Shown here: positions 22,154 to 57,152 of the stretch, one piece after another
How positions within the stretch are numbered: the first letter of the stretch is position 1
Layout: every line of letters starts with the position of its first letter
Assembly: GCA_947625535.1 (NCBI GenBank)
Contig: CANQOR010000002.1
Span: 9,507 to 73,506, forward strand
Reading direction: 5' to 3'
Length of the DNA: 64,000 nucleotides
Origin: an uncultured Bacilli bacterium
GTDB taxonomy: Bacteria > Bacillota_I > Bacilli_A > RF39 > UBA660
Made by a program: the position numbers and the translations under genes
The notes under the pieces: generated by a model
Seen by the model: the letters and a program-made list of their open reading frames with translations, nothing else
The model's database searches: none
Told to the model about the DNA's origin: nothing

Positions 22154-22155
22154 TT

Positions 22156-22944: not shown

Positions 22945-22947
22945 AAT

Positions 22948-26441: not shown

Positions 26442-26466
26442 AAATAAATTTTGAGGTGATTAATTA

Positions 26467-26712
26467 ATGAAAGAAGCTACAGGTGAATTAACAGGATCTG
26501 TAATTGTTGTATCAGTCGTTGCTTTGCTTACGGCTTTTTTCTTTATGTTCGTTTGGCCAAATGTAAAAGACAATATGAATGATAGGGCACGATGTGCAGA
26601 TGCTCTTTGTGATAATGGTTACAATAGCAATGGCATGGCATATTGTAAGGTACCAGATGATTCTGATAATCCTGATGATACCCCAATATTTGAATGCCCT
26701 TTTAGAGGGTAG
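26467..26712 (+). CDS. small pilin-like protein (major pilin candidate 2)
   Basis: 81 aa with an identical MKEATGEL N-terminus, a hydrophobic helix and 4 Cys in the tail. GAGGTG RBS. Confidence 0.55.
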   Translation: MKEATGELTGSVIVVSVVALLTAFFFMFVWPNVKDNMNDRARCADALCDNGYNSNGMAYCKVPDDSDNPDDTPIFECPFRG

Positions 26713-26720
26713 GTGTTATT

Positions 26721-27239
26721 GTGAAAGAAGCAATAGGTGGTACTTGGATTATGGGTGTTGTTATAGCGTTTTTAGCGCTATTTACAACATTTGTTAGTGT
26801 TACAACTAATTATTCAAGATGTTATAAAATTAAAGATGAAGTTTTACTAACTATTGAAAGGAATCATGGTTTAAATAAAGATTCTATTGAAGCAATAAAC
26901 TCTTATTTAAGTAGTTTAGGATATTCTGCTACAGGAAAATGTCCTGATGATGGATGTTGGTATAGGTTCTCTACTAGTTCTAGTACAGCAGTAAATTCTT
27001 CTAATAAAGTAAATTATTGCGTACAAAAACATACTGTAACAGAGAGATATCGTGCTGGAGATGAAGTCTATGTTACGGGACCTATAGGTCATCCTGAGTC
27101 TGCTTATTATGAAGCAGTTATATTCTTTAGATTAGAATGGCCTATTTTAAATACTTTATTTAACATAAAAATAAGTGGTGAAACACCGATTATCTTTATG
27201 CTTAAGGATGATGCTATTGAGCATGCTAATTGTAAGTAG
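26721..27239 (+). CDS. pilin-like (minor pilin / TadE-F-like) protein
   Basis: GTG start. MKEAIGGTW + TM helix. Shares YSR(C/S)(Y/F)KIK(D/N)EVL with the next ORF. Confidence 0.45.
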   Translation: MKEAIGGTWIMGVVIAFLALFTTFVSVTTNYSRCYKIKDEVLLTIERNHGLNKDSIEAINSYLSSLGYSATGKCPDDGCWYRFSTSSSTAVNSSNKVNYCVQKHTVTERYRAGDEVYVTGPIGHPESAYYEAVIFFRLEWPILNTLFNIKISGETPIIFMLKDDAIEHANCK

Positions 27240-27249
27240 GTGATAAAGA

Positions 27250-27861
27250 ATGAAAAATGGGATAGTAAATGTCTGGTTATGGGGACTTATTATTGTATTT
27301 ATCGGTTTTTTCTCTGCTTATATAATTATTACTCTAGAATATTCTAGGTCTTTTAAAATAAAAAATGAAGTCTTAACGATTATTGAGAAAAATAAAGGGG
27401 TTACTAGAACTGATAAAAGAAATAGAAGTGGTGTCTCAAAAATTTCAACGGGAGCCACAATAACTACTAATGTTAATACTATACAAACTATTAATCTATA
27501 TTTATTAGGTAGCGGTTATACTGCTAAAGGACAATGTCCACTAGATGAATATGGTGGTATTTGGTATGGTGTTAAAGATTTAGGTAAGTATAATGATCCA
27601 GCAAATGATATAGTAAAAATTACTTCTAGTACGGTTAAAGATAAATATTATTACTGCTTTTCAAAATATAATGCTAATTTAAAGGGCGGTATGTATAAAG
27701 CTGTTTATTATAGAGTTGTTTTATTCTATAAGTTTGAAGTTCCAGCTTTATCTGAGTTCTTATCTGTTCGTGTTGATGGATTAACTGATGAAGTATATGA
27801 TCCACAAGATGAAAGTCAAATTGAAGAAAGTACAGCAAAGGTATATAAAAAGATTCCATAA
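27250..27861 (+). CDS. pilin-like (minor pilin / TadE-F-like) protein, paralog of 26721
   Basis: MKNGIVNVW + TM helix + EYSRSFKIKNEVL. Confidence 0.45.
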   Translation: MKNGIVNVWLWGLIIVFIGFFSAYIIITLEYSRSFKIKNEVLTIIEKNKGVTRTDKRNRSGVSKISTGATITTNVNTIQTINLYLLGSGYTAKGQCPLDEYGGIWYGVKDLGKYNDPANDIVKITSSTVKDKYYYCFSKYNANLKGGMYKAVYYRVVLFYKFEVPALSEFLSVRVDGLTDEVYDPQDESQIEESTAKVYKKIP

Positions 27862-27879
27862 AAAGGGAGATAGTGTTTT

Positions 27880-28986: not shown

Positions 28987-29015
28987 TTGACATATTTTAC
29001 AAATTTAAATACAAT
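28987..29015 (+). promoter_or_regulatory. sigma-A-type promoter candidate for the T4SS module
   Basis: TTGACA (28987-28992), 17-nt spacer, TACAAT (29010-29015). An AAGGAG RBS follows before ATG 29045. Confidence 0.5.
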
Positions 29016-29044: not shown

Positions 29045-29362
29045 ATGTATTTACTAGTTAACTTTTGCGCAGATACTAAAGATATATGGCAAATAGTAGG
29101 TAGAATTTTAGGTGTATTTAAAATCGTTATTCCACTATTAATTATTATATTTGGATGTATTGATTTAGGAAAAGCAGTTGTTGCTTCTGATGATAAGGAA
29201 ATTAAAAAAGCATTAAAGCAATTAGCTATGAGAGCTGTTGCTGGTATTGCAATTTGGTTCGTACCTACATTAGTTAGTTTAGTATTCAGCTTAGTTGAAG
29301 TAAGTTCAAATGGTGACTACGAGGTATGTAAAACTTGTATTACTAGTCCAGATGGATGCTAA
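29045..29362 (+). CDS. VirB2-like T4SS pilin-type small membrane protein (paralog 1)
   Basis: 105 aa, two TM helices joined by a charged loop. Aligns with the next ORF (VFKxxxPLL...F...D..KA...K..R.V..I...F.P.L). Cys-rich C-terminus CKTCITSPDGC. Confidence 0.45.
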   Translation: MYLLVNFCADTKDIWQIVGRILGVFKIVIPLLIIIFGCIDLGKAVVASDDKEIKKALKQLAMRAVAGIAIWFVPTLVSLVFSLVEVSSNGDYEVCKTCITSPDGC

Positions 29363-29389
29363 TAATTGAATTTTATATTTAAAATAAAG

Positions 29390-29417
29390 TGATATTTGTT
29401 TAAATATCATTTTTTTT
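29390..29417 (+). terminator. intrinsic terminator after the first VirB2-like gene
   Basis: Stem tgatattt / aaatatca with a 4-nt loop and an 8-T run. Confidence 0.55.
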
Positions 29418-29450
29418 ATGATATAATTTCAATGATATGAGGTGTTTTCT

Positions 29451-29846
29451 ATGTATAGAAAATTGTTATTAATTATGACTATAATTTTAGGGGGATTCTT
29501 TTTAGTTAGTAATAATGTTATGGCTATAGATAATTCTTATGATGTTCACTATTCTTTAGCTGGTAGAACTGCTGATGAATGTGGTGGGGTTTTTGATGAA
29601 GAAGTTATAGAGTTTTTACAACAAGTTTTTAATGTGTTTAAATATGCTGCTCCTTTATTGTGTTTAGCTTTTTCAATTATGGACTTTTTAAAAGCTACTG
29701 CTAGTCAAGAGAAAGAAGCTTTGTCTAAGGCAGCTAAAACAACAGGTAAAAGAGTTGTATATGCTATAATTTTGTTTTTTATTCCTAATTTAATTAATTT
29801 CTTATTTAATTTATTAGGTTGGTATGGTACGTGTGGTATTAGTTAG
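29451..29846 (+). CDS. VirB2-like T4SS pilin-type small membrane protein (paralog 2, with signal peptide)
   Basis: Start set at ATG 29451 after a GAGGTG RBS. Signal peptide (…SNNVMA/ID), then a two-TM hairpin homologous to ORF 29045. Confidence 0.5.
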   Translation: MYRKLLLIMTIILGGFFLVSNNVMAIDNSYDVHYSLAGRTADECGGVFDEEVIEFLQQVFNVFKYAAPLLCLAFSIMDFLKATASQEKEALSKAAKTTGKRVVYAIILFFIPNLINFLFNLLGWYGTCGIS

Positions 29847-29858
29847 GAGTGAAATTAT

Positions 29859-32759
29859 ATGCTAGTATTATTTAGTCTAGGTGATACTATTAAATCTGGT
29901 ATAATTGGTATTTTATTAACTTTAGATACTTTTATTTATGGTTTAATTGGTTCTGCATTTAGAATATTTATGGCTATTGCTAGTGCAAGATTATTATCTT
30001 CTGATGCTTATTATGAAGTTGCAAATAGAGTTTATGTAATTATAGGTGTTTTAATGCTATTTGTTCTTTCATATGCAATTTTAAGAGGTATTATTGATCC
30101 TGATCAATCTATGAAGGGTGATTTAGGACCTAAAATGGTTAAGAATGTTGTAATTGCGGTAGTAGGTCTTGCTATTACACCTGTTATTTTTAATTTATTA
30201 TATCAAGCACAAAATTTATTTTTAGAACATGATGTTTTAGCTAAAATATTCTTTAGAAGTAATAGTGATTTAAGTGTTAATTTAGGTTCTTCTTCGGTAA
30301 CTGTTGGAGATCAGTCAACTTCTGTTGATCCAAACGTAAGTGTAGATGATAAGATTAAAGAAATTGGTGGTTCTGTTACAGCAACCAATTTATGGGAAGC
30401 ATTTTTTCATCCAGCAGAAGATAGTGGAAAAACATCAGATGAAATTGAAGCTGACCCAAGTGATTACTTCTTAGCTGGTGGTGGATACTTACTGGCTTGT
30501 GCAGGTCTCGCTGTAGCAGCGGCTTTAGTTCCAGTCGGTGGTTGGATTTTAGGTGGAGCCGCGGTTGTAGCATGTTTGGCAGGTGTCTCGAATATTAATA
30601 GTGGTATAGAGGGATCGAAGATTACTGATGGAGATAAAATAACTTTATCGGAAGCGTATGCTTTAACTTCTGGTGGAGGTTCTTTTGGTATATATACTGT
30701 TTTCTTAAATAACTATATTGAAGATGGTGAAATTGAATACTTCTGGGGCTTATCAACAATAGCTGGTATTTTCGTTTTATATGCCTTTGTATCATTTAGT
30801 ATAGATATGGGTGTTCGTGCTGCTAAGATGGCTTATTATCAAATAATAGCGCCTGTACCACTTATTATGCAGGTTTTACCGTCTTTTAAAGATAATTTTA
30901 GACAATATACAAAATCTGTTGTATCAACTTTTATGGAAGTATTTATTCGTATTTCTGTTGTATACATAGTTGTTTATATTATTTGTCACTTATATGATTT
31001 GTTTTCTACAACTTCTGCCTTGTGGGCTAATGATGATTTGAATTCAATAGAAACTTTATTAGCGTTAGCACTACTTATTTTAGGACTTGTAGCATTTGCA
31101 AGACAAGCACCAAAGTTTATCTCTGAATCATTAAAATTAAATACAGGAAATATGAGTTTAGGTATTGGTAAGAAGTTCGCTGAGGGTGGTGGATTTGCTG
31201 CTAAAGCAATTGCTACTTCAGGTGTTAGAACTGCTGCTCAAAACTGGAATCGTAATAAAGATCAGAACTTTGGTCGAAGACTTGGTTCCGCTTTAGCAGG
31301 ATTTGGTTCGGCAACAGCAAGAAGTGCTTATGCTCAATTTGGTCCTGGAGCTAATCATAAGATGGCAATGGATAATGAATCATCTAAACGTGTTAGTGCA
31401 AATGCAACTAACGCGGCATATGATGCTGGTGTAAATAGAAAAGAACGTCAAGATAGACATGGAGCTGACGTTACAAACTTACAAAATGCACAAGCTGAGT
31501 TAGAAGCAGCTGAAGCTGCATATGATGCAGCTGTAGCTAGTGGTAATGCAGCTGATATTGAAAGAACTAGAGCTGCTCGTGATGCAGCAATTGAGAAAAC
31601 TAGAAAAGCAAGAGTTGCTTGGGTTGAATCTTCTGGAGCACTTGGAGCTGCAGCTACGGATGCTTATAAGAGAGCAACAGCTTGGGCTACTGGTACGATT
31701 GATTTATCTAAAGAAGAAGCAGATATCAAATTCGGTGCTGCTTTGGATGATATGAAATCTAAAACTCGTGAAGAAGCTTATAAGAAAGATGCTGTTTCTA
31801 AAGCATGGAAACAACAAATGGAAACATTACAAGCAACTAAGATTAGTGAATATCGTGAAGGTTGGGATGAAAATTCGTATAATGCTGAAATTCAACGTTT
31901 AACAGCAACTCAATTTGCTGATTTAAGAACTAAACAAAATGCTCGTGTGGCTGCTCAAAATGCTTTAGATGCGGCAGTAGCTGCTGGAGCACCAGCTGCA
32001 GATATTGCTACTTATACTGCAGCATTAACTGCTGCCCAAGCTGATGAGACGGCATCTAGATCAGCATTTGAATCAGCAAGAACAGCAGCTATTAGTAGCT
32101 TGGAAGGTGTGGCCAAGAGAAGTGATCTTGAAATGTCACAAGCTCGTACTGAATTACAATCTAAGATAGAAGCAACAAGAAGAACTATGGAAGCAGCTGC
32201 CGATGCTTGGGTAGCAGCAAATATCACTTCAAATCAAAATCTTCAAAATACAGTTCAAGGTGTTATTTCTCAGTATTCAGATTATATTTCACAAAATCAA
32301 ACACGTATGGTTACAACTTTGGATGCAGATGGTAATCAAGTTCAAGTTCAATTATCTGATTTACTAGCACCATTTGGAGCTAATGCTGCTACTAGTGCTC
32401 AAGTTGATTTTAGTAATATTAAACATCAAAATACTTTTGTTTTAGATGAAGTTGCTCCTGATGGTACTGTATCAAGTAAAACTTATAAGCGTAAATATAG
32501 GACTAATCCTGATGGAACTGAAACAGATCTTGGTTATGAGGATGAAAGTGGTGCAATGCTTTCTGCTAAAGAATTATTTGATAGAGCTTATAATAGTATG
32601 TCTAGAGATAATTCAAGAAAAATTACAACTCAGACTGCTGTTGGAAAAGTTGCTGATGATGGTAAAGGTGTTAAGAATGCTACACCACTTACTAGAGATT
32701 ACATTGATAAAGTTACTCGTAAGCGTCAAGCTGAAGAAAATAAAAATGGTCGAAGGTAA
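29859..32759 (+). CDS. virB6: VirB6/TrbL-like polytopic T4SS channel protein with a long Ala-rich coiled-coil C-terminal extension
   Basis: About 8 TM helices in the first roughly 420 aa, placed before VirB3/VirB4 as in Gram-positive T4SS loci. The C-terminal roughly 450 aa is A/E/K/R-rich heptad-like sequence. Confidence 0.6.
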   Translation: MLVLFSLGDTIKSGIIGILLTLDTFIYGLIGSAFRIFMAIASARLLSSDAYYEVANRVYVIIGVLMLFVLSYAILRGIIDPDQSMKGDLGPKMVKNVVIAVVGLAITPVIFNLLYQAQNLFLEHDVLAKIFFRSNSDLSVNLGSSSVTVGDQSTSVDPNVSVDDKIKEIGGSVTATNLWEAFFHPAEDSGKTSDEIEADPSDYFLAGGGYLLACAGLAVAAALVPVGGWILGGAAVVACLAGVSNINSGIEGSKITDGDKITLSEAYALTSGGGSFGIYTVFLNNYIEDGEIEYFWGLSTIAGIFVLYAFVSFSIDMGVRAAKMAYYQIIAPVPLIMQVLPSFKDNFRQYTKSVVSTFMEVFIRISVVYIVVYIICHLYDLFSTTSALWANDDLNSIETLLALALLILGLVAFARQAPKFISESLKLNTGNMSLGIGKKFAEGGGFAAKAIATSGVRTAAQNWNRNKDQNFGRRLGSALAGFGSATARSAYAQFGPGANHKMAMDNESSKRVSANATNAAYDAGVNRKERQDRHGADVTNLQNAQAELEAAEAAYDAAVASGNAADIERTRAARDAAIEKTRKARVAWVESSGALGAAATDAYKRATAWATGTIDLSKEEADIKFGAALDDMKSKTREEAYKKDAVSKAWKQQMETLQATKISEYREGWDENSYNAEIQRLTATQFADLRTKQNARVAAQNALDAAVAAGAPAADIATYTAALTAAQADETASRSAFESARTAAISSLEGVAKRSDLEMSQARTELQSKIEATRRTMEAAADAWVAANITSNQNLQNTVQGVISQYSDYISQNQTRMVTTLDADGNQVQVQLSDLLAPFGANAATSAQVDFSNIKHQNTFVLDEVAPDGTVSSKTYKRKYRTNPDGTETDLGYEDESGAMLSAKELFDRAYNSMSRDNSRKITTQTAVGKVADDGKGVKNATPLTRDYIDKVTRKRQAEENKNGRR

Positions 32760-32782
32760 TAAAATGAAGGGTTGTGTGATAT

Positions 32783-33124
32783 ATGGATAATAACAATTTT
32801 CTAATTCCGGCGAACTCTAAAAAATCGCAAATGATTTTGAGTTTCTTTCGTCCAATTGATTTAGCAATATTTATAACAGGAGTTAGTATTACAATTTTAC
32901 TATTAGTAATAATTGATTCAAACGATATGAAAGTAATGTTTATGTTACTAGCTCCTGCATTAATTGCAACTTTCTTAGTTGCTCCTGTTCCTTATTATCA
33001 TAATGTTATGACATTAATGGGTAATATATATACATTTTATACAGGAAGAAAAAAATATTATTGGAGAGGTTGGTGTGCAAGATATGCCGATGATAGAGAA
33101 AGCAAACAACAACAACGTAACTAA
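32783..33124 (+). CDS. PrgI/VirB3-like small two-TM protein
   Basis: 113 aa with two adjacent TM helices, immediately upstream of VirB4. Confidence 0.5.
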   Translation: MDNNNFLIPANSKKSQMILSFFRPIDLAIFITGVSITILLLVIIDSNDMKVMFMLLAPALIATFLVAPVPYYHNVMTLMGNIYTFYTGRKKYYWRGWCARYADDRESKQQQRN

Positions 33125-33677
33125 TGTTGCTGTAGAACAATCTAGTAAATATAGTGAAGATTGGGTTCCTATAAAAAATATAATGAATGGAATGATTCGT
33201 CTAGATAATGGATATTATGTTACAGGAGTTAAAGTAGCTCCTAAAAACATCTTTATTCTAGATTCTGAAGATCGTGAAAGAGTTATATTTGAATTACAAA
33301 ACTTTTATAATATGATAGATTATGAATTTTGGTTAGTTGTAGCTGATAGACCGGTTGATATAAATTTATATTTATCACAATTACAACTTTTATATCAAAA
33401 AAGTGTAGATAGTGCAGTTAGAAAATTAATTATTCAAGATATTAATAAAGCTAATGCATTTATGGGTGCTGAATATAATGTAGTTGATACTGAGTATTTT
33501 ATCTTATTTAAAGAAAAAAGAATGGAAACTATTCAAAAGAGAATACATAATTTAATAGCTGGACTTGCTAATGCTTCAATAAATTCTACTCAAGTTTCAA
33601 ATGCTGATTTAAGAATGATACTTGATAACTTCTTAAATGGTGGTATGACTACTACTTTTGGGACGGTGAGAGCATAA
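33075..33677 (+). CDS. VirB4 N-terminal domain encoded as a separate polypeptide
   Basis: GGAGAGG RBS 5 nt before GTG 33075. The segment WVPIKNIMNGMIRLDNGYYVTGVKVAPKNIFILDSEDRERVI matches the conserved N-terminus of Gram-positive VirB4/TraE/PrgJ-type ATPases. Stop and next start overlap as TAATG. Confidence 0.55.
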   Translation: MQDMPMIEKANNNNVTNVAVEQSSKYSEDWVPIKNIMNGMIRLDNGYYVTGVKVAPKNIFILDSEDRERVIFELQNFYNMIDYEFWLVVADRPVDINLYLSQLQLLYQKSVDSAVRKLIIQDINKANAFMGAEYNVVDTEYFILFKEKRMETIQKRIHNLIAGLANASINSTQVSNADLRMILDNFLNGGMTTTFGTVRA

Positions 33678-35461
33678 TGAATATAAAAAGTGAAATAGCT
33701 CCAAAAGGTTTATTATTTAAACCTACGGAATTTATTATTAGTGGTAAATATGCAACTATATTAACAGTTATTAGTTATCCTAAATTTATTAATCCTGGTT
33801 TCTTATCAAATTTAACTAATATATCTGGAGTTAAATTAGTTGCTAAGCATATTCCTATTGAATTTTCAACATTACAAAGTATGTTAAATAAGGAAATAGC
33901 TGATTTAAAAGTACGTTATCAATCTGAACGTGATCAAACTATTCAAGAGCGAATTAGACAAGATTATGAATCATTAGAAAGTTTTATTTCAATGTTAGCA
34001 GCAACACAAGCTAGAATATATGATTTTCAATTACATATTATGGTTACTGCTGATAGTCCTGAAGAACTTGAAATGAAAAAGATGCAAGTTCGTAGTTATA
34101 TAGATGCTTTAGGAATGAAAGCAATATCATTGATGTTTGAACAAGAAAAAGTTCTTAAATCAATTATTCCTATATTCCCTAAACAAGATCTTGAAAATAG
34201 AATTGGTACACCAATTCCTTCAATTACAATTGCAGCTATGTATCCATTTGTTTTTGATAGTATAAAAGATCCTGGAGATTCAACTTTATTAGGTGTTGAT
34301 TTCTCTGGAGGTGTTATCTTATTTAATCAATTCTTATTTAAGATAAAGAAAGAACATAATAGAAATAATGCTAATATGATTATTTTAGGTACTTCTGGTA
34401 GTGGTAAATCTACAGCTGCTAAATTATTAATAAGAAGTCATATTAGAAATGGTTATAAAGTTATTTGTGTTGACCCTGAAGGTGAACTTGAAGAAATGTG
34501 CCGTAACGTTAATGGTAGTTACCTAGATTTAGGTAAAGGTGGCGATTATGGTATGATAAATCCTTTAGAGGTTGTACCAGATGCTGATCAAGAAGAGTTA
34601 GAACAAGGTTTAGGTTATACAGTTTTAACTAGAGCATTACAATCATTAAAAGCTTTTATGAAATATTATTCTCCTAGTATTGAAGAAGATGTATTAACAA
34701 TGTTTAGTGAAGTTGTACAAGATACTTATAAACGTTATAAAATAGATTTTGAAACTGATTTTTCAACATTAAGATCTGAAGATTTTCCTACTTTTGATGA
34801 TGTTTATGCAACAATTAAAGGTCGTTTATTATCAATGCCTGAAAAAACTCGTGAAAGAGATGTAATGGAAAGACTTGAGCTTAAAGTTAGACCTTTAACG
34901 AAAGAACTAAGATATTATTTCTGTGGACATACGACATTAAAAATTGATAGTAATATTATTGTTTTCAATATTAAAGAATTAATGAATAGTGATGAAAATA
35001 TTCGTAATGCTTTATTCTTTAATATCTTAAAGTTTGCTTGGGGTTTATGCTTAGATAAAGAAATGACAACATTATTATGTGTTGATGAAGCCCATGTTTT
35101 ATTATCTACAAGAAATGAACTTGGTGCTGAATTCTTAGCTCAAATGCAAAGACGTGCAAGAAAATATAACACAGGTACAATTATTATTACGCAACAACCA
35201 ACAGATTTTGCAGCACCTAACTTAATTGTTCATGGTAAAGCAATATTTGATAATGCATCTTATTATTTAGTAATGGGCTTGAAAAAACAAGCTGTTGAAG
35301 ATTTAGCTTTATTAATTGATTTAAATGAAAGTGAAATGAATAGTATTAAGAGTTATAATCAAGGAGATGCCTTATTTGTTTGTGGTAGTAGACGTATGAG
35401 AGTTCGTATTTTATGTACGCAAGAAGAACTAGATTCATTTGGATCTGGTGGAGGATTATAG
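33677..35461 (+). CDS. virB4: VirB4-type T4SS ATPase (middle + ATPase domains)
   Basis: IAPKGLLFKP...YPKFINPGFL segment typical of the VirB4 middle region. Walker A GTSGSGKST, Walker B LLCVDEAH. Confidence 0.85.
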   Translation: MNIKSEIAPKGLLFKPTEFIISGKYATILTVISYPKFINPGFLSNLTNISGVKLVAKHIPIEFSTLQSMLNKEIADLKVRYQSERDQTIQERIRQDYESLESFISMLAATQARIYDFQLHIMVTADSPEELEMKKMQVRSYIDALGMKAISLMFEQEKVLKSIIPIFPKQDLENRIGTPIPSITIAAMYPFVFDSIKDPGDSTLLGVDFSGGVILFNQFLFKIKKEHNRNNANMIILGTSGSGKSTAAKLLIRSHIRNGYKVICVDPEGELEEMCRNVNGSYLDLGKGGDYGMINPLEVVPDADQEELEQGLGYTVLTRALQSLKAFMKYYSPSIEEDVLTMFSEVVQDTYKRYKIDFETDFSTLRSEDFPTFDDVYATIKGRLLSMPEKTRERDVMERLELKVRPLTKELRYYFCGHTTLKIDSNIIVFNIKELMNSDENIRNALFFNILKFAWGLCLDKEMTTLLCVDEAHVLLSTRNELGAEFLAQMQRRARKYNTGTIIITQQPTDFAAPNLIVHGKAIFDNASYYLVMGLKKQAVEDLALLIDLNESEMNSIKSYNQGDALFVCGSRRMRVRILCTQEELDSFGSGGGL

Positions 35462-35469
35462 AATTTAAT

Positions 35470-35491
35470 AAAAAGCCGATATCGGCTTTTT
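35470..35491 (+). terminator. intrinsic terminator after virB4
   Basis: Perfect palindrome aaaagccgat/atcggctttt followed by T. Confidence 0.65.
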
Positions 35492-35538
35492 AATTTTGTT
35501 TCTTTATGTTATACTTTTGATAGTGTGGAAGTGGTAAA

Positions 35539-38007
35539 ATGGCACAAGATTCTGATAAAAAAATAAAAGTAGGATTAGAAATTCCTATTGAAGATGAAGA
35601 TGAGTTTAGAGAAGAAGATAAAAGGTTAGATAAAGCACAAGAAGATGCTAAAAGAGTAGCTGATGCTCCTAAACAAACGCCATCTTTAGAACGAGATACT
35701 TCAACAGGTTATAATCCTAATAGATATCAAAATACTGGAACTGAACCTGCTCGTAGAACAAGTTCTTTAAATAGAGATAATGAATTAAGTAGAAAGCCAG
35801 CTAGTGGTGATGCTTCTAAACCAGCTCTACCAACTAAGCAAACGCCAGCAGAAGCTAAACCACAGGATAGGAAGGAAACAGCTCCTGATGTTGGTAAAGA
35901 TTATGGTGAAGGGACTCCTCCTAGTTATCCTAAATATGGAGAGATGCCTAGTCAAGGAACACAAGAATCACCAGTAGGGGAACAATCACCTATGGTTGCA
36001 TCACCTAAATATAATCCTGAAGATTTTGAATCTGGACATGGTGGTTTAGAGAAAAAAGATGAAGATAAATTAGATGCACCAGATGAAAAAGAAAAAGAAC
36101 CAAAAGAAGAACCAAAGGGAGAAGACGGAGAAAGAAAAACAGCAGGTGATGAAGTTGAACAAAATCCGATGGCTTCTAAAAAAGTTAATCCTCAAGATGA
36201 AGTAGCCAAAGAAGCTCCTTCAGAAACTTCTCCTGGTAATGGATATGGAGCTTTAAAAAATAGAAGTAAGAGTAATCCAGAACAAACACAAGATACAGAG
36301 AATGCACGTAAAAATTTAAGATTTTCACAACGTGTTTCACAAAATCAAGCTCAAGAAAATGGAACTAATCCAGCTGGAAGAAGTTCTTCGGGAAGTATAA
36401 ATGAACCAGCTCAAGAATCTCTTGGTTCAAGATTAAGAAATAGATTAAGTGGTATTTTTAATGGTAATACACAAAGAGATGTTTCAAATGGACATGGTCG
36501 TAATAGTGGGGATGGAAATAATCCATTTAATGCGGCTTTTAGTCAATTAAAAAAGTCAATAATAGAGTTTTTAAAAACACATCCTCATGTAGCAGTTATT
36601 ATTGCAGCGATTATTTTATTAGTTTTAATACTATTTATTTGGTTAGTAAATGAAACATATAATAATAATGGGCATGGAGCAGGAGCTCGTTGTACTTATT
36701 CATTAAGTGGTGTTTTATCAACAGGAACTGTTAATTTAGAGGGACTTCAAGTAGAAGTAGTTAATTGTGATGCTAGTGCTAATAATTATACAGTATTAGA
36801 AACTGTTGATTTTGAAAAGTATGTTGTTGGGGTTGCTTTAGCTGAAACTGGTTATTCAGATTCTACTGTTGAAGCATTTAAAACACAAATTGTAGCAGCT
36901 AGAGGATTTGCTTTAACACGTAATAGTTCAATGTGTCCAAGTAATCCAGATGATTGTTTTTATGGATATAATCCTAATACAGGTAAGATAAGACTTAGAG
37001 CTTGTACGAATGATCAAGTTTATTGTGATTATGATAGAGATTGTTATCGTATGACTAGAGGATCTAGCCCAGCTTTATTTAGTCCAGAAATAGATGAAAA
37101 TACATCAGGAGCTTATGTATGGAAAGGTCAACTAAGTGAAGAGTTAAAAGCTAAAGTATTAGCAGCTGCTGATGAAGTAAAAGGAAAAGTTTTATTAGAT
37201 GAATCAGGTAATGTTGCTCATACTAATTATGTTAATACGGATCAACAACATTGGGTTGAACTAGCTAATCAAGGAAAGACATATGATGAAATATTAATTG
37301 AACACTATGGCGGTGGCAATGTATCTGGAGCAACTTGTACAAGTGGTGTTATTGATTATGGTGATTATGTATTATCATCAGAAGGACATACAATATTACA
37401 TGAACCTTTAGATGGTTTCTTAGAAAAAAATGGAACTAGTTTAGAAGCATTTAATGGTTTAATAGCGGAAAACGTTGATAAAGCTGGATATGGAACAAGA
37501 GCTGGTGTAGTTGCAGCAGCAGTTACATTAATAGCTGAACTTGGTAATAATTATGGTGTTAAAGTACCTTACTATTGGGGTGGTGGACACTATGATGGTG
37601 TTGTAGATGGAGCACTAGGTTATTGGGGAAGTACACAATGTCATACTTATGCTAATAATCAATCATATGATTATTGTGGTTTCGATTGTTCAGGATTCGT
37701 TCCTTGGGCGATTAAAAATGGTGGATTTAATATTTCCCAAATGTTAGCTGGTAATTTCCAAAATCTACCTGGAGTAAGAAGAGTTAATTTATCAAATAGT
37801 GCTGTTTTACAACCTGGAGATTTACTAGAATCTAGTGGTCATATAGTATTAGTTGTTGGTATAGAAGAATCTTCTGGTAATTATATATGTGCTGAAGCAA
37901 GTGGAAATGCAGCAGGAGTATTATTTACACGTCGACCATTCAATAGTAGCGGTTACTGGGGAGTTGAAATGGATGGTTTCTATGAAACTCATCAAAGGAG
38001 CAAGTAA
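35539..38007 (+). CDS. T4SS-associated cell-wall hydrolase: disordered N-terminal region + TM + SpoIID-like domain + NlpC/P60 endopeptidase domain
   Basis: SpoIID-like signature EKYVVGVALAETGYSDSTVEAFKTQIVAARGFALTRN. NlpC/P60 region YYWGGGHYDG...GFDCSGFVPWA (Cys) ...SGHIVLVVG (His). One TM helix near aa 350. Confidence 0.8.
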   Translation: MAQDSDKKIKVGLEIPIEDEDEFREEDKRLDKAQEDAKRVADAPKQTPSLERDTSTGYNPNRYQNTGTEPARRTSSLNRDNELSRKPASGDASKPALPTKQTPAEAKPQDRKETAPDVGKDYGEGTPPSYPKYGEMPSQGTQESPVGEQSPMVASPKYNPEDFESGHGGLEKKDEDKLDAPDEKEKEPKEEPKGEDGERKTAGDEVEQNPMASKKVNPQDEVAKEAPSETSPGNGYGALKNRSKSNPEQTQDTENARKNLRFSQRVSQNQAQENGTNPAGRSSSGSINEPAQESLGSRLRNRLSGIFNGNTQRDVSNGHGRNSGDGNNPFNAAFSQLKKSIIEFLKTHPHVAVIIAAIILLVLILFIWLVNETYNNNGHGAGARCTYSLSGVLSTGTVNLEGLQVEVVNCDASANNYTVLETVDFEKYVVGVALAETGYSDSTVEAFKTQIVAARGFALTRNSSMCPSNPDDCFYGYNPNTGKIRLRACTNDQVYCDYDRDCYRMTRGSSPALFSPEIDENTSGAYVWKGQLSEELKAKVLAAADEVKGKVLLDESGNVAHTNYVNTDQQHWVELANQGKTYDEILIEHYGGGNVSGATCTSGVIDYGDYVLSSEGHTILHEPLDGFLEKNGTSLEAFNGLIAENVDKAGYGTRAGVVAAAVTLIAELGNNYGVKVPYYWGGGHYDGVVDGALGYWGSTQCHTYANNQSYDYCGFDCSGFVPWAIKNGGFNISQMLAGNFQNLPGVRRVNLSNSAVLQPGDLLESSGHIVLVVGIEESSGNYICAEASGNAAGVLFTRRPFNSSGYWGVEMDGFYETHQRSK

Positions 38008-38009
38008 TT

Positions 38010-38762
38010 ATGAAAAAAAGATTGATATTATTAATTAGTTTTCTATTTTTGTTATGTGGTTGTACAGCTAATGTTAATATAGAAGTTAAAGAAAATGGAA
38101 TAAATGAAGAAGTTTTAATAACAGATACTTTTACTGATGCAACAATTAAAGAACAAGTTAAGAATCGTTATATAGAATTTGTTCCGGCTTTTGCTGAAGA
38201 TGTAATAGTAGATACAATGCCAGAAAAAATGCCTGGTGTTAAGTATTATGATCGAGAAATTAGTGAAATTAATAATGGATATAATGTAAAATATGAATAT
38301 TTCTTTGGAACTGCTAATTATTTAAAAGCAAGAACTGTTAAGAATGGTTTTAAATCTTCTGCTTTACAAAAAGATACTAAAGAAGAAACATTAACATTAT
38401 CTACTGATAGTGGAGGTTTATTATACTTTAAAGATTATCCTGAGTTAGCTCAAGTAAGAGTTAATATTACTTCTGTGTATAAAGTATTAGAAAGTAATGC
38501 TGATAGTGTAAATGGTAATGTTTATAGTTGGGTATTTACACCAACTACTAAGAAAAGTATTTATATATTGTATGATACTAAGAAAGAAGATACTGTAGGT
38601 GATCCAGAAAAGGAAGATACTAAAGAAGAAAATGAATCTTCTAAAAATGAGAAGACAGGTATTGAAAAATTTATGAATGATCATCCAATATTAATTGCAT
38701 CTTGTTTACTTGTATTATTTTTGATTTTTGTTATAATATCAACTAAGATTTTTAAGAAATAA
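38010..38762 (+). CDS. lipoprotein with C-terminal TM helix (T4SS accessory, function unknown)
   Basis: Lipobox-like FLLCGC after a signal peptide, and a C-terminal hydrophobic helix + KIFKK. 2-nt gap after the hydrolase gene. Confidence 0.5.
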   Translation: MKKRLILLISFLFLLCGCTANVNIEVKENGINEEVLITDTFTDATIKEQVKNRYIEFVPAFAEDVIVDTMPEKMPGVKYYDREISEINNGYNVKYEYFFGTANYLKARTVKNGFKSSALQKDTKEETLTLSTDSGGLLYFKDYPELAQVRVNITSVYKVLESNADSVNGNVYSWVFTPTTKKSIYILYDTKKEDTVGDPEKEDTKEENESSKNEKTGIEKFMNDHPILIASCLLVLFLIFVIISTKIFKK

Positions 38763-38836
38763 ATAAAAGGAATTACTCCTTTTATTTTTGACTTGTTATG
38801 TAGTATAATATTAATAGATTTGGGGTGTATAGTCTC

Positions 38837-41545
38837 ATGAAATTTCGTATTTCTAGTAAAGATTTAGTAATGTTTATTGTTTTTGCTTGTTTTTTACTTT
38901 ATTTATGTGCAATAGCAACAACAAATATTAGTTATTTTGGTTCAACTGGTTCATTTTATGGATTGAATCCAATCCCAGGTTTTACCGAATATTTAGGAGC
39001 AACAGTAGTATTGTTTCTAATTTTGGTTGTTTTAATTTTTACCAGTGTATCTTCTTTAGTTTTTGAAAGAAAAGATGGTATTGGTTTTGAAATAGGGGAA
39101 AAAGATAATAAAGGTTATTCTAGATGGTCAAAAGATCGTGAAATAAAAAATGATAAAGGAGTAGAAATAGTTGATCCTTTATCACAAGAGACTACAGTAG
39201 CTGGTATTCCTTTAGTTAATGATGGAAAAAGATTATGGGTTGATAATGGTGAATATCATAACTTAGTAATAGGTTCAACTGGTTCAGGTAAATCTCAAAC
39301 AATAGTTGAACCTATGGTTGAATTATTAATTAAAAAAGGCGAAAGTATGATTATTACTGACCCTAAAGGTGAATTATATAAAGCATCAAGTGATTATATG
39401 CGTCAAAGAGGATATAACGTTGTTATTCTTAACTTCCGTGAACCACAAAATGGTAATGCTTGGAACCCTCTTACTTTACCTTACCAATATTATAAAGATG
39501 GAAATGTAGATAAAGCTACAGAATTATTGGATGACGTTGCTTTAAATATTTTGTATGATCCTAATAATAAGGGTGAACCTTTCTGGGAAAAGTCAGCTGC
39601 TGACTACTTCTCAGGTTTAGCATTAGGATTATTTGAAGATGCTAAAATTGAAGAAATAAATCTTAACTCTATTAATTTAATGAGTACAGTTGGTGAAGAA
39701 AAGTTTGCTGCTAGTAATTATATTAAAGAGTATTTTACTTTAAAAGGTGAAGATTCAAATGCTTATGTATTTGCTTCTAATACAATTAATGCTCCTTCAG
39801 ATACTAAAGGTGGTATTTTATCTGTATTTAGACAAAAGATAAGATTATTTGCTTCACGTGATAATTTATCAGAGATGCTTGCTTATAGTGATTTTGATAT
39901 GCGTAATATCGGAAAAGAAAAAACAGCAGTATTTATAGTTATTCATGATGAAAAAACAACATATCATGGATTAGCAACAATTTTTATTAAACAAGTTTAT
40001 GAAACGTTAATTGATGTTGCTCAAGCTAATGGTGGTAAATTACCATATCGTACTAATTTTATCTTAGATGAGTTCGCTAATATGCCACCTCTTAAAGATG
40101 TTACAACAATGGTTACAGCAGCACGTTCTCGTGCCATTAGATTTACATTTATTATTCAAAACTTTGCTCAATTAAAAAGTGTTTATGGTAATGAAGATGC
40201 TGAAACAATTAAGGGTAACTGTGGTAATTTAGTTTACTTAATTAGTACAGAATTAGCAGCCTTAGAAGAAATTAGTAAAATGTGTGGAGAAGTAAAATCA
40301 AGTGATAAAGATAAAACAGCTTCTACACCATTAGTTACAGTTACTGATTTACAAAAATTAAAATTATTTGAAGCTATTATTATTAGATGGCGTTTAGCTC
40401 CATTTAAGACAAAATATACACCAAACTTTAAAATGGATTGGGGACATCCAAAATCTGAGGCAGTGTATCCAACGAGAGAGAAAAAACCAGTACAGAAGTT
40501 TGATGTAAAAGAATTTACTAAGAAGAAAAAGAGTGAAAAAATTAAAAATTCTTTAAATGAAAGTACTAATTCTATGCCAAGTAATGGTAATCCTTTTAGA
40601 AGCCCTGGTGATAATCCATTTGGAGCTGGTCCATTTGGTGGTGCTAGTCCATTTGCTAATCCAGAATCTAAGGGTGATAATGGATTATTTGGTGGCTTAG
40701 GTGGTGGATTAGATCTTGATGCGATGATGAGAGATATCGACAGAAAAATTGCTGAATTAGATGCTGAAGAAGCTCGTCAGAAAGAGGAACAATCTAAATT
40801 AAAAGCTAGTGAAAAAGATAAAGAAGATAATCAATTACCAATGCCTAGTATTGATGATGATATAAATAATCAAATTGAGGATATGATAATTGGTCAAGAA
40901 GAGAGTAAAATAAAAGATGTTACTCCTGAAGAGATTAGCGAACCTAAAATAGAACCTAGTAAACCAGTTGTTGATTCATTTAATATCTTTAATTCTAAAT
41001 CAACTAATAATGAAGAAAACATAGATTTATTAAGGGATGAAAAGAATAATGAAGTTACTATAGGTAATGAAAAAGCAAGTATTGCTGTAGCTACTAGTAG
41101 TCCTTTAGAAGATGTTGATACTTATGAAACTCTACCAAAAGTAGAAAATGCTTCAATAATCCAACCTAGTTATAATAGTGGTACAGTAGTTAAAACAAAT
41201 AGTGAAGATTATAATATTTATAATAGTGTTCCTAATATAATGGATACTGTAAAAGATGATGTTAAATCTGAAGAAACTATAAAAGAAGAACTTAAAGAAT
41301 TTAAAAAACCAGTAACAACATATAGTGTAGAACCTAAAGTAAAAGAAGAACCAAAAACTAATGAATATAATATCTTTAATACACCAGTTACTAAAGAAGA
41401 TGAAGTAACAGAAAATATTAAAAAGATGGAAAATACAGTAGAAGAAAAAGCTAATGTAAATATTGATCCTGATAAAGTAGTAATTAAAGATAATAATGTT
41501 ATTACAGATGATGAATTCTTTGATGACTTTTTTGGCGATGACTAA
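38837..41545 (+). CDS. virD4: VirD4/TraG-type type IV coupling protein with a roughly 350-aa acidic low-complexity C-terminal tail
   Basis: Start set at ATG 38837 after GGGGTG. Two N-terminal TM helices, Walker A GSTGSGKSQT, Walker B FILDEFANMP. Confidence 0.85.
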   Translation: MKFRISSKDLVMFIVFACFLLYLCAIATTNISYFGSTGSFYGLNPIPGFTEYLGATVVLFLILVVLIFTSVSSLVFERKDGIGFEIGEKDNKGYSRWSKDREIKNDKGVEIVDPLSQETTVAGIPLVNDGKRLWVDNGEYHNLVIGSTGSGKSQTIVEPMVELLIKKGESMIITDPKGELYKASSDYMRQRGYNVVILNFREPQNGNAWNPLTLPYQYYKDGNVDKATELLDDVALNILYDPNNKGEPFWEKSAADYFSGLALGLFEDAKIEEINLNSINLMSTVGEEKFAASNYIKEYFTLKGEDSNAYVFASNTINAPSDTKGGILSVFRQKIRLFASRDNLSEMLAYSDFDMRNIGKEKTAVFIVIHDEKTTYHGLATIFIKQVYETLIDVAQANGGKLPYRTNFILDEFANMPPLKDVTTMVTAARSRAIRFTFIIQNFAQLKSVYGNEDAETIKGNCGNLVYLISTELAALEEISKMCGEVKSSDKDKTASTPLVTVTDLQKLKLFEAIIIRWRLAPFKTKYTPNFKMDWGHPKSEAVYPTREKKPVQKFDVKEFTKKKKSEKIKNSLNESTNSMPSNGNPFRSPGDNPFGAGPFGGASPFANPESKGDNGLFGGLGGGLDLDAMMRDIDRKIAELDAEEARQKEEQSKLKASEKDKEDNQLPMPSIDDDINNQIEDMIIGQEESKIKDVTPEEISEPKIEPSKPVVDSFNIFNSKSTNNEENIDLLRDEKNNEVTIGNEKASIAVATSSPLEDVDTYETLPKVENASIIQPSYNSGTVVKTNSEDYNIYNSVPNIMDTVKDDVKSEETIKEELKEFKKPVTTYSVEPKVKEEPKTNEYNIFNTPVTKEDEVTENIKKMENTVEEKANVNIDPDKVVIKDNNVITDDEFFDDFFGDD

Positions 41546-41569
41546 TTAATTAAGTCATCTCTTTTTTTT
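41537..41569 (+). terminator. intrinsic terminator closing the accessory locus
   Basis: Stem gatgact (41537-41543) / agtcatc (41553-41559), followed by TCTTTTTTTT. It overlaps the stop codon. Confidence 0.55.
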
Positions 41570-57148: not shown

Positions 57149-57152
57149 TTAT

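Follow-up and report, generated by a model that had tools for sequence, protein, structure and literature searches.

The window analysed here (64 kb of chromosome from an RF39-order gut bacterium, uncultured and with a small genome) carries a conserved T4SS-containing unit of about 30 kb, 11774-41545, which starts with the gene of a 249-aa protein. In the earlier note, the T4SS unit was taken to start at 29045. The gene content given for 29045-41545 was recovered, comprising two VirB2-like pilins, VirB6-like and VirB3-like proteins, a two-gene VirB4, a hydrolase, a lipoprotein and VirD4, but the conserved block already opens at 11774. The following features precede the T4SS genes.

11774..12523, + strand: 249-aa protein, first gene of the block, signal peptide and C-terminal TM anchor (TM at both ends); conserved promoter-like leader upstream
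12523..18378, + strand: giant 1951-aa secreted or surface protein, putative adhesin, (GSG)n linker; N-terminal TM or signal only
18395..18907, + strand: DUF5411 protein (PF17424, E 2e-50), N-terminal TM helix, pseudopilin-like by position
18932..19729, + strand: SAF/CpaB-like membrane-anchored protein, N-terminal TM; tblastn match to the annotated SAF-domain protein of the related plasmid (E 1.6e-17)
19757..21244, + strand: secretion ATPase, T2SSE superfamily (VirB11/TadA/TrbB-like; PF00437, E 7.6e-26), P/A/T-rich tail
21260..22944, + strand: two polytopic membrane proteins (297 and 262 aa) in TadB/TadC position, homologous to two post-ATPase membrane ORFs of the plasmid (E 8e-9, 1e-6)
23021..26086, + strand: inserted gene, 1021 aa, FAD-oxidoreductase domain (Amino_oxidase and NAD_binding_8 matches) and large membrane domain
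26172..27861, + strand: four genes for small pilin-like proteins of 89, 81, 172 and 203 aa; in each protein, MKEA(T/I)G precedes a single N-terminal hydrophobic helix
27880..28977, + strand: cytoplasmic two-domain protein, TadZ/CpaE-like, C-terminal MinD/ParA-type fold with degenerate P-loop (AF2 and Foldseek)

No family match in Pfam or NCBIfam was obtained for the 249-aa product, the giant protein or the four pilin-like proteins. The membrane proteins at 21260-22944 gave no Pfam, NCBIfam or PDB profile match, and the 27880-28977 protein no Pfam, NCBIfam or PDB sequence match. For the latter, which has at least 5211 homologues, the AF2 model (pLDDT 68) was matched by Foldseek to MinD, ParA, FlhG and HypB (E 1e-5 to 1e-3). 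The first gene follows a thioredoxin-like gene in relatives too, and the order of the four pilin-like genes is likewise kept. The giant protein shares only about 29% identity with its orthologues (dN/dS ~0.8), and a 9-nt tandem repeat lies within its gene at 13986-14075; the dN/dS of the membrane proteins was 0.06-0.16. The ATPase carries the Walker A sequence GETGSGKT and matched VirB11 (3e-32), TadA-type (4e-31) and TrbB (5e-28) models, all below their equivalog cut-offs.

The gene order of this module parallels that of Tad/Flp (type IVc) systems, with a MinD-like TadZ-type protein, a TadA-type ATPase, two membrane proteins, small pilin-like genes and a SAF/CpaB-like protein. Unlike in those systems, however, the membrane proteins gave no T2SSF match, the pilin-like N-termini lack the Flp G/XXXXEY motif, and VirB11 or TrbB models fit the ATPase just as well. 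No prepilin peptidase was found in the window. The T4SS genes and associated elements are as follows.

28987..29015, + strand: sigma-70-type promoter-like site TTGACA-17-TACAAT (11/12 match), ahead of the T4SS genes
29045..29362, + strand: VirB2-like T4SS pilin, two-TM hairpin (TM 14-32 and 60-78; PF18895, E 9.6e-8, 32.4 bits, cut-off 26.6)
29442..29846, + strand: second VirB2-like pilin paralogue, signal peptide and two TM (PF18895, E 0.0023, 18.4 bits, under the cut-off of 26.6)
29859..32759, + strand: VirB6-like channel protein, 966 aa, ~9 TM, ~500-aa Ala-rich C-terminal extension (by TM count, position and a weak match)
32783..33124, + strand: VirB3/PrgI-like small membrane protein, 113 aa, two adjacent TM (hairpin), directly before VirB4 like the plasmid PrgI-family gene
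33075..33677, + strand: VirB4 N-terminal domain as its own gene (NF045975 profile positions 98-276, E 1.4e-13)
33677..35461, + strand: VirB4 ATPase domain (NF045975, VirB4_plasma, positions 294-889, E 6.8e-105; P-loop_TraG)
35469..35492, + strand: terminator-like hairpin, then an extended -10 element and leader ahead of the hydrolase gene
35539..38007, + strand: bifunctional cell-wall hydrolase in the VirB1 role (SpoIID-like PF08486, E 2.2e-8; NlpC/P60-like PF00877, E 0.0024, under cut-off)
38010..38762, + strand: lipoprotein (lipobox LLCGC; G17 and C18 invariant), C-terminal TM anchor, beta-rich ectodomain
38825..41545, + strand: VirD4 coupling protein, two TM, ATPase domain, ~390-aa variable acidic tail (NF045973, CD1115 family, 295 bits, cut-off 250)
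41453..41542, + strand: VirD4 C-terminal motif NVNIDPDKVVIKDNNVITDDEFFDDFFGDD, conserved among homologues

The Gram-positive T4SS core described earlier (VirB1-, VirB2-, VirB3- and VirB6-like proteins and VirD4) was thus present; only VirB4, counted there as one gene, proved to be two overlapping genes. All 43 loci checked keep this split; in most of them the two genes overlap by ATGA or TAATG, and in the others a few bases separate them. Identity of the VirB4 ATPase gene among relatives was 77-94%, and one orthologue of the N-terminal gene gave a weak TraC-like match. The VirB6-like protein showed a weak match to the Mbov_0396 ICE TM model (20 bits against a cut-off of 70), and its gene precedes VirB3/VirB4 like the plasmid TrbL gene. 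The VirB3/PrgI-like protein had no family match in Pfam or NCBIfam; both identities are supported by nothing more than topology, gene position and very weak matches.

The hydrolase consists of a disordered N-terminal region, one TM (341-359), the SpoIID-like domain and the NlpC/P60-like domain. The lipoprotein was modelled by AF2 with a pLDDT of 82.6, its top PDB fold match being M. tuberculosis LppM (E 1e-6). It is not VirB8-like, and no VirB8-like protein was found.

VirD4 matched Pfam T4SS-DNA_transf (E 1e-54) as well as the TrwB_AAD_bind and TraG-D_C domains. The record of the window's own product (P0001) has 902 aa, and translation probably starts at the ATG at 38837 rather than at the called 38825. 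All 120 homologues compared keep the Walker A and B motifs, and catalytic motifs are kept in all three ATPases of the block. Although the linker varies, DDxF(F/L)DDFF occurs within the last 25 residues in 119 of the 120, so that a near-invariant ...DDEFFDDFFGDD closes the long variable tail. The motif has a single occurrence in the window. It is probably a docking site, with no substrate, effector or adaptor identified.

Predicted promoters of the modules were shown to be kept across species. CTTGACA...TAnAAT stands at the equivalent place in 16 of 18 related loci, the hairpin and TGnTATACT before the hydrolase gene are kept in most related loci shown, and the promoter-like leader ahead of 11774 is conserved.

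The block is bracketed by metallophosphoesterase-CPBP-thioredoxin genes upstream and rhodanese-DedA-RmuC-UppP genes downstream; family scans of the flanking ORFs agreed with the flanking groups named in the earlier note. Many relatives at the species level, with VirD4 identities as low as about 55%, have the whole block in this same housekeeping bracket; the arrangement is found in many RF39-order gut MAGs. VirD4 relatives were found at no fewer than several hundred places. Among the listed stretches from a one-genome-per-species collection, at least 557 of at least 599 matched by pattern encode one. By taxonomic assignment, Ca. Coprovivens belongs to RF39, family CAG-1000. The gene at 23021-26086 (GC 0.25) is missing at that position in every relative; it is a lineage-specific insertion within the block and does not belong to the system.

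No relaxase, tyrosine or serine recombinase, DDE transposase or Rep protein was detected by Pfam and/or NCBIfam among 79 ORFs of the 64-kb window, in agreement with the earlier note, which had read the locus and about 10 kb on either side. The scan took ORFs of 82 aa and longer and left out 25 shorter ones (60-137 aa), almost all of which overlap longer genes or run antisense to them. The absence of flanking direct repeats and of a tRNA border also held: no direct repeats bracketing the block were found, and tRNA genes in the window occur only at 56.6-58.6 kb. A check for oriT-like inverted repeats returned nothing convincing. The MobP3 relaxase, which adjoins VirD4 in the closest plasmid relatives, was matched neither in the window nor across 2 Mb of related loci; with searches of this extent, a relaxase elsewhere in the genome remains possible.

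The closest mobile relatives are the pBMB67-type plasmids of Bacillus thuringiensis (NC_009841, NZ_CP116331), related to the pAW63/pXO2 tra regions with VirB4, VirB11 and VirD4 homologues. They share with RF39 a CD1115-family VirD4, a VirB4 split into a ~200-aa gene and a ~600-aa ATPase gene, an NlpC/P60 hydrolase, and the module of DUF5411, SAF protein, MinD-like ATPase, T2SSE ATPase and two membrane proteins, the DUF5411-like ORF lying at an equivalent relative position. TrbL/VirB6-like and PrgI/VirB3-like genes stand in corresponding places, an assignment that rests on annotation and gene order alone (tblastn E ~0.09). Identity is only about 29-30%, however, and the module order differs. 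Unlike RF39, the plasmids carry a MobP3 relaxase directly upstream of VirD4 together with replication, partition and recombinase genes; their small ORF before VirB6 has no T4SS_pilin match, and their VirD4 lacks both the long tail and the FFDDFF motif. The comparison showed the RF39 locus to go back to an architecture shared with these transfer regions, minus the relaxase and every other mobility function.

The GC content of the block (0.31-0.32, against 0.23-0.24 in the flanks) would suit an ICE or integrated plasmid that is still active or lost its mobility recently, with relaxase, integrase and attachment sites outside the window. The excess is, however, confined to codon positions 1-2 and seen in all relatives, while synonymous GC (GC3) is like that of the host; the 11.7 kb upstream and 22 kb downstream hold housekeeping genes syntenic in other species, and neither bracketing repeats nor a tRNA border exist. 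This reading is very improbable and already largely refuted. A decaying, non-functional mobile-element remnant, to which the lost relaxase and the foreign gene at 23021-26086 might point, is likewise hard to credit: block genes are intact in all relatives examined (VirB4 in 43 loci), promoters are conserved, and the insertion is intergenic and disrupts no gene. Values of dN/dS were 0.04-0.08 for VirB4 and 0.15-0.23 for VirD4, compared to 0.06-0.12 for RmuC and 0.10-0.15 for an aminoacyl-tRNA synthetase; dS was alike inside and outside the block, close enough to saturation that the ratios are approximate. The core genes are under strong purifying selection, and decay is already contradicted by the conservation data. 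The fixed site, core ATPases evolving as slowly as neighbouring essential genes, and host-like GC3 indicate an old, vertically inherited and functional block, not an ICE. Since mobility genes are lost and the chromosomal site is identical in many related species, the system probably serves the cell, not a mobile element.

The reading given slightly better than even chances is that a conjugation-type machine was domesticated long ago and has become a fixed part of the chromosome in RF39-order gut Bacilli, passed on vertically, with protein as its most likely substrate. A domesticated rather than self-transferring system, as previously suggested, gains support from the fixed site, purifying selection, host-like GC3 and lack of MobP3. 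Protein is favoured over DNA by analogy, because every characterised relaxase-less T4SS keeping VirD4 moves proteins, to our knowledge; no substrate, effector or adaptor has been identified. Movement of DNA, whether by a conjugation-like exchange of chromosomal DNA among RF39 cells or by release or uptake of DNA, with a relaxase elsewhere, an unrecognised nickase or none, is a possibility to be taken seriously, if a doubtful one. VirD4 exceeds the cut-off of an equivalog for conjugal transfer and contains the TrwB_AAD_bind and TraG-D_C domains, VirB4 is nearest to the mycoplasma ICE model, the mobile relatives are all conjugative, and RmuC, a DNA recombination protein, is encoded three genes downstream with no terminator-like site between. 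Relaxase-free transfer has been proposed for mycoplasma chromosomal transfer and for pXO16, whose relaxase and oriT are likewise unidentified. However, neither a relaxase (window and 2 Mb of related loci) nor a convincing oriT-like inverted repeat was found, order-wide conservation under strong constraint would be unusual for a purely sexual function, and known T4SS-based DNA-uptake systems lack VirD4. The two VirB2-like pilins, four further pilin-like genes, secretion ATPase module and giant fast-evolving surface protein could also mean that the main products of the block are surface filaments and adhesins with which the cell attaches to mucus, host cells or other bacteria, and that the T4SS ATPases serve pilus biogenesis and not transfer. 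This is improbable: characterised systems can build pili without VirD4, which here is highly conserved, with intact Walker motifs and a specialised tail.

In the proposed domesticated machine, the ATPase/pilin-like module, the VirB2-like pilins and the giant surface protein would make contact with a neighbouring cell, and the hydrolase would open the wall. VirB4, VirB6 and VirB3 may form the channel, to which VirD4 would recruit the substrate via its long tail, the invariant acidic-aromatic end (DDEFFDDFFGDD) docking an adaptor or the substrate itself. Counting against this reading, the VirD4 family is annotated for DNA transfer and the TrwB-type all-alpha domain is kept. The missing VirB8-like part and the weak VirB6 and VirB3 calls also speak against it.

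Mycoplasma ICEs (CDS5 = VirD4, CDS17 = VirB4, CDS16 = VirB6-like) provided the best NCBIfam model for the RF39 VirB4 (351.6 bits, under the equivalog cut-off of 590) and the weak VirB6-like match to Mbov_0396. They resemble the locus in their minimal apparatus, surface lipoprotein and lack of a VirB8-like part; the RF39 locus differs in having no DDE recombinase, in not being mobile, and in its cell-wall hydrolase and split VirB4.

The closest concept, by analogy, is the relaxase-less chromosomal T4SS of Patescibacteria, a different phylum. Chromosomal T4SSs are widely conserved in Patescibacteria/Saccharibacteria, mostly as clusters without a relaxase (Wang et al. 2023; PMC12102498; review PMC12857230). 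Both are monoderm MPF-FATA-derived chromosomal systems in reduced-genome bacteria, and the RF39 locus differs by its VirB1-type hydrolase, split VirB4 and linked ATPase/pilin-like module. For RF39, neither essentiality nor an epibiotic way of life has been established. As in Patescibacteria, the system probably matters for how these auxotrophic bacteria with reduced genomes live, with essentiality and expression untested. The VirB2-like pilins (PF18895) of the Patescibacteria T4SS are said to be absent from other Gram-positive T4SSs (PMC12102498; PMC12857230), and pilins detected by the same family are also present in the RF39 locus.

The conserved unit was found to be larger than first described: it begins at window position 11774 and extends as a block of about 30 kb to position 41545, with all long ORFs on the plus strand and with short or overlapping junctions. 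The block is a conserved, non-mobile, conjugation-type apparatus without a linked relaxase, and it is apparently expressed, expression data being absent.

Features of the block and its downstream border (window positions)
11774–28977, plus strand: upstream half, with a small anchored protein, a 1951-aa surface protein and a DUF5411 protein at its low-numbered end, and with a homologue of a SAF-domain protein, a secretion ATPase, two polytopic membrane proteins, four small proteins with one N-terminal hydrophobic helix each, and a 365-aa cytoplasmic protein
18932–19729, plus strand: SAF-like protein
19757–21244, plus strand: secretion ATPase
23021–26086, plus strand: 1021-aa gene
27880–28977, plus strand: 365-aa protein (MinD-like)
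29045–41545, plus strand: T4SS part
29859–32759, plus strand: VirB6-like protein, 966 aa
33075–33677, plus strand: VirB4 N-terminal gene
33677–35461, plus strand: VirB4 ATPase gene
35539–38007, plus strand: membrane-anchored hydrolase (VirB1 role), 822 aa
38010–38762, plus strand: lipoprotein, 250 aa
41595–41843: single-domain rhodanese, 82 aa

The T4SS gene set with a coupling protein, proposed in the earlier note, was borne out by profile for VirB4, VirD4 and the hydrolase; VirB6 and VirB3 had weak matches only. The VirB4 ATPase gene matched NF045975 (VirB4_plasma) over positions 294–889 (E 6.8e-105) as well as P-loop_TraG, and the VirB4 N-terminal gene covered positions 98–276 of the NCBIfam VirB4_plasma profile. 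VirD4 scored 295 bits against NF045973, the CD1115 conjugal coupling-protein family (cut-off 250), and matched PF02534 (E 1e-54); its ORF spans 906 aa, while the gene call on record (P0001, 902 aa) starts at an ATG four codons downstream. Walker A and B motifs were present in 120/120 VirD4 homologues and were also visible in the VirB4 and secretion ATPase sequences. The hydrolase carries a SpoIID domain above cut-off and an NlpC/P60 domain below it. Of the features of a monoderm conjugation-type T4SS (VirB1/3/4/6/8 + VirD4 set), a VirB4-family ATPase, a VirD4-type coupling protein and a hydrolase in the VirB1 role are present. The VirB2-like pilin matched PF18895 above cut-off, with a weaker paralogue next to it. 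The VirB6-like protein, with about nine TM segments, gave a weak match to the mycoplasma ICE VirB6-like family, and the VirB3-like candidate is a 113-aa TM-hairpin protein; topology and position agree with both labels, which remain positional, as do the TadB/TadC labels of the two membrane proteins. No VirB8-like (NTF2-fold) part was detected in the locus; the only candidate, the lipoprotein, was rejected on its model (pLDDT 82.6), whose predicted fold resembles that of M. tuberculosis LppM. A C-terminal Ala-rich region of about 500 aa on the VirB6-like protein, an N-terminal disordered region of about 340 aa on the hydrolase, and a long low-complexity P/A/T-rich tail on the secretion ATPase were also observed.

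In the upstream half, the secretion ATPase belongs to the T2SSE superfamily, with VirB11, TadA-type and TrbB models scoring about equally. The 365-aa protein had no sequence-family match and, as the sole uncharacterised cytoplasmic protein, was the only place for a hidden novel relaxase. That possibility was rejected on its model (pLDDT 68; built, like that of the lipoprotein, from database homologues), in which the C-terminal domain resembles the MinD, ParA, FlhG and HypB folds; with a degenerate P-loop, the protein is predicted to be a TadZ/CpaE-like organiser rather than a nuclease. Profile searches against PDB sequences with the MinD-like protein, the lipoprotein and the two membrane proteins returned nothing useful. 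Paralogy between the two membrane proteins was not detected by hhalign, so the TadB/TadC label rests only on position and on homology to plasmid ORFs.

Two further observations concern this half of the block. The 1951-aa surface protein shares only some 29% identity with its orthologues, compared with 60–90% for neighbouring genes, and contains a (GSG)n linker encoded by a 9-nt tandem repeat at 13986–14075. The 1021-aa gene (GC 0.25) combines an FAD amine-oxidase/NAD_binding_8 domain with a large polytopic membrane domain. Its neighbours are the second membrane protein and the first pilin-like gene, and it is missing from this position in all relatives examined; at its left junction there is an AT-rich imperfect palindrome (22926–22994).

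Mobility genes were sought by Pfam and/or NCBIfam scans of 79 ORFs from across the 64 kb, each of at least 82 aa; this left unscanned 25 shorter ORFs (60–137 aa), almost every one of which overlaps a longer gene or runs antisense to one. No relaxase, recombinase, integrase, DDE transposase or Rep/partition protein was detected among the 79 ORFs, the whole genome being outside the scope, and the only ParA/MinD-fold protein of the window is the TadZ-like gene within the pilus-like module. Nor did tblastn with MobP3 yield a match (E up to 0.1), whether in the window or across 2 Mb of related loci. The block is not bracketed by direct repeats, and the tRNA genes lie 15 kb downstream, leaving no tRNA border. 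Taken together, the scans, the tRNA position and the lack of bracketing repeats confirm the earlier observation that the locus has neither mobility genes nor flanking repeats nor a tRNA boundary. The suggested search for oriT-like inverted repeats, applied to intergenic regions, yielded imperfect, AT-rich repeats and no convincing oriT. None of the marks of a self-transmissible element (ICE or conjugative plasmid), such as a relaxase with oriT, an integrase or Rep protein, and attachment repeats or a variable site, was found in the window and loci examined.

To assess chromosomal fixation, the proteins of the window were mapped to loci from genomes (79) and metagenomes (59). VirD4 homologues occurred in MAGs of uncultured Bacilli, uncultured Tenericutes, Candidatus Coprovivens, Candidatus Caccenecus and Mycoplasma sp. 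CAG:776; Ca. Coprovivens is placed in GTDB order RF39, family CAG-1000 (PMC8035907), and the placement of the window itself in this lineage is an inference from its closest homologues. In a one-genome-per-species collection, a VirD4 relative was present in at least 557 stretches (557/599 pattern-matched, among the matches listed). The upstream flank reads metallophosphoesterase, CPBP protease, thioredoxin-like, followed by the block from a 249-aa gene to VirD4; downstream follow rhodanese, DedA, RmuC, UppP, tRNA synthetase, GH25 and PBP5. Relatives with VirD4 identity as low as about 55% repeat the downstream half of this order, and loci centred on the secretion ATPase repeat the upstream half; the whole series from flank to flank is not covered by any one locus. 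Independent gene calls on a 343-kb contig gave the same order. In distant members VirD4 has moved, yet it remains amid housekeeping genes (ValRS, PriA, sigma factor, UppS), adjoining the rhodanese gene, and no relaxase was found near it. The block is not mobile, and the question of whether it occupies one chromosomal site was answered positively for many species, conspecific strains being outside the scope.

The modules can be rearranged between RF39 genomes while remaining chromosomal: in two related loci (L064, L068) the ATPase/pilin-like module and the MinD-like gene are followed directly by VirD4, with the VirB4 block elsewhere. The rhodanese gene lies 3' of VirD4 in most of the loci L001–L079, including cases in which VirD4 stands apart from the other T4SS genes (L058, L063). 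Between VirD4 and rhodanese, DedA and RmuC, no terminator-like site was found.

All genes were intact in the relatives examined. NG86 dN/dS values were 0.04–0.08 for the VirB4 ATPase gene, 0.07–0.22 for the VirB4 N-terminal gene, 0.15–0.23 for VirD4, 0.06–0.16 for the two membrane proteins and about 0.14 for the secretion ATPase; the flanking genes gave 0.06–0.12 (RmuC), 0.10–0.15 (tRNA synthetase) and 0.20–0.29 (PBP5). Values of dS were alike inside and outside the block, and near saturation. The fast-evolving parts were the exposed ones: the giant protein, the VirB6-like protein, the hydrolase, the lipoprotein and the pilins. The GC content of the block was 0.31–0.32, compared with about 0.23–0.25 outside it, and the excess resided in codon positions 1 and 2. 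Since GC3 (0.09–0.24) equals that of host genes (0.08–0.13) and the same offset occurs in all relatives, recent transfer was rejected as the cause and the raised GC is attributed to amino-acid composition. Putative regulatory elements were likewise retained. A TTGACA-17-TAnAAT promoter-like site precedes the first T4SS pilin gene in 16/18 loci, and both a hairpin with an extended -10 element 3' of VirB4 and a promoter-like leader upstream of the first block gene are kept between species.

To trace the origin of the apparatus, 72,556 plasmids were searched by tblastn with the VirB4 ATPase. None matched above 60% identity; the best matches (29% identity, E 6e-78) were B. thuringiensis plasmids of 56–73 kb, including pBMB67 (NC_009841). 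In one such plasmid, NZ_CP116331, the order is MobP3 relaxase, CD1115-family VirD4, small ORF, TrbL-family, PrgI-family, a 227-aa "hypothetical" and DUF87 ATPase; further on follow a DUF5411-like ORF, a SAF-domain protein, an AAA_31 (MinD-like) ATPase, a T2SS/T4P/T4SS ATPase, two "hypothetical" membrane proteins and small DUF4320-type ORFs. The VirB4 N-terminal gene of the window resembled the 227-aa ORF (E 1.5e-16), and plasmid matches were also obtained for the SAF-like protein, the secretion ATPase and VirD4, as well as for both membrane proteins via RF39 orthologues. The block therefore shares with pBMB67/pAW63-type transfer regions the split VirB4, the CD1115 VirD4 and the module of DUF5411, SAF, MinD-like, T2SSE ATPase and two membrane proteins, but lacks their plasmid backbone and the MobP3 relaxase beside VirD4. 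pBMB67 is considered putatively conjugative, and pAW63 has VirB4, VirB11 and VirD4 homologues (PMC9673590, a review of B. cereus-group conjugation).

The two-gene split of VirB4 was present in 43/43 RF39 loci, mostly with an ATGA or TAATG overlap and otherwise with a gap of a few bases. The shared features make the composite layout, together with the division of VirB4 into two genes, ancestral to a conjugative plasmid family; both this division and the linked VirB11/TadA-type module would then count as ancestral traits of the source plasmid family. VirB4 of the B. thuringiensis plasmids is likewise two genes, the N-terminal one annotated only as hypothetical; the two-gene entries are 33075–35461 in the window and 13245–15824 in locus L139. 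Among 1.84 billion representatives searched, the RF39 VirB4 clade formed one cluster, followed by two clusters at 44–45% identity and further ones at 31–36%, including Thomasclavelia ramosa/Coprobacillus and Solobacterium; these Erysipelotrichales (Thomasclavelia, Solobacterium; 31–32%) were the nearest named outgroup found.

Of the systems known, the Patescibacteria chromosomal T4SS comes closest in concept; it is MPF-FATA-derived, mostly without relaxases, with VirB2-like pilins recognised via PF18895, and in Saccharibacteria it is essential for epibiotic growth (PMC12102498, PMC12857230). As defined in PMC12102498, this type shares with the RF39 locus its chromosomal location, lineage-wide occurrence, lack of an associated relaxase and PF18895 pilins. 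VirB2 subunits are stated to be otherwise absent from Gram-positive T4SSs (PMC12857230), and the RF39 locus would be a second exception. The mycoplasma ICE T4SS differs: VirB4 reached 351.6 bits against Mbov_0397 (cut-off 590) and the VirB6-like protein 20.4 against Mbov_0396 (cut-off 70), and its DDE recombinase CDS22 has no counterpart in the window scans. With Tad/Flp type IVc pili, the window ATPase agrees at superfamily level only, and no T2SSF match (TadB/TadC), Flp prepilin motif or prepilin peptidase was found in the window. The RF39 genome is described as highly reduced, with numerous auxotrophies (PMC12306168), and nothing relevant was found in the literature linking RF39 with T4SS, VirB4, VirD4 or pili. 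The parts and the idea of domestication are already known; new are the lineage, a 30-kb composite fixed in place, the conserved motif on the VirD4 tail and the clear descent from plasmids.

The tail of RF39 VirD4 comprises about 390 aa, is rich in K/E/N/D and varies in sequence and length. At its end, the motif NVN(I/V)DPDK...I(S/T)DD(E/A/Q)FFDDFFGD(D/E) was present in 119/120 VirD4 homologues; it is missing from plasmid VirD4 and has no second copy in the window. C-terminal tails of coupling proteins are docking platforms: that of F TraD, acidic and Phe-ending, binds TraM, and that of DotL binds the IcmSW/LvgA adaptors. By analogy with TraD and DotL, the motif may be inferred to be a docking site for an adaptor or substrate.

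In the proposed mechanism, contact with another cell would be made by the giant surface protein, by the VirB2-like pilins and by the pilin-like module, the last powered by the VirB11/TadA-type ATPase. Local opening of the wall would fall to the hydrolase, and translocation of the substrate to VirB4, VirB6 and VirB3, while VirD4 would act as the gate. The statement as a whole, a contact-acting, VirD4-gated apparatus moving protein, is favoured with modest confidence. The characterised relaxase-less T4SSs with VirD4 are protein translocators, and T4SS-based DNA-uptake systems are not known to include VirD4; together with the order-wide constraint, which suggests a housekeeping-like role, this is the ground for preferring a protein substrate. 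The main rival, DNA transfer with a relaxase that is distant, unrecognised or dispensed with, is doubtful, though a serious possibility: VirD4 belongs to a conjugal coupling-protein family, VirB4 is near that of mycoplasma ICEs, and the relaxase and oriT of pXO16 are likewise unidentified.

A pure adhesion or pilus role matches the data poorly and is very unlikely; an active ICE and a decaying remnant are also poor matches, and hardly any credence is given to either. A further reading is put forward only as an unlikely speculation: RF39, a prevalent gut lineage, may depend on the apparatus for an episymbiotic or parasitic, contact-dependent relation to other cells, injecting or extracting macromolecules, with the FFDDFF tail as substrate or adaptor gate. 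If true, this would be a second independent case, with Patescibacteria, of a conjugation machine turned into a lifestyle-essential organelle.

RF39 bacteria are common in human and animal guts, uncultured and auxotrophic in many respects, and the conserved 30-kb machine offers a handle on their lifestyle. Being intact and strongly constrained across the order, it predicts cell-to-cell contact and suggests that isolation may require partners in co-culture. In the search for substrates, the invariant C-terminal motif of VirD4 provides a defined bait. Relaxase loss and fixation of a monoderm T4SS, so far known from Patescibacteria, would have occurred independently in Bacilli.

Outside the block, sporulation-type genes (CotZ-like, YunB and a weak YutH-like) were observed at 9055–9525, 52080–52760 and 54937–55926, in a lineage described as genome-reduced. 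The protein encoded at 53661–55037 (458 aa) has no family match; its long low-complexity core, rich in Pro/Val/Ala/Thr, raises the GC there to 0.35. Twelve tRNA genes occupy 56667–58588, with a WDGH-domain ORF (57391–57786) between tRNA-Phe and tRNA-Val.
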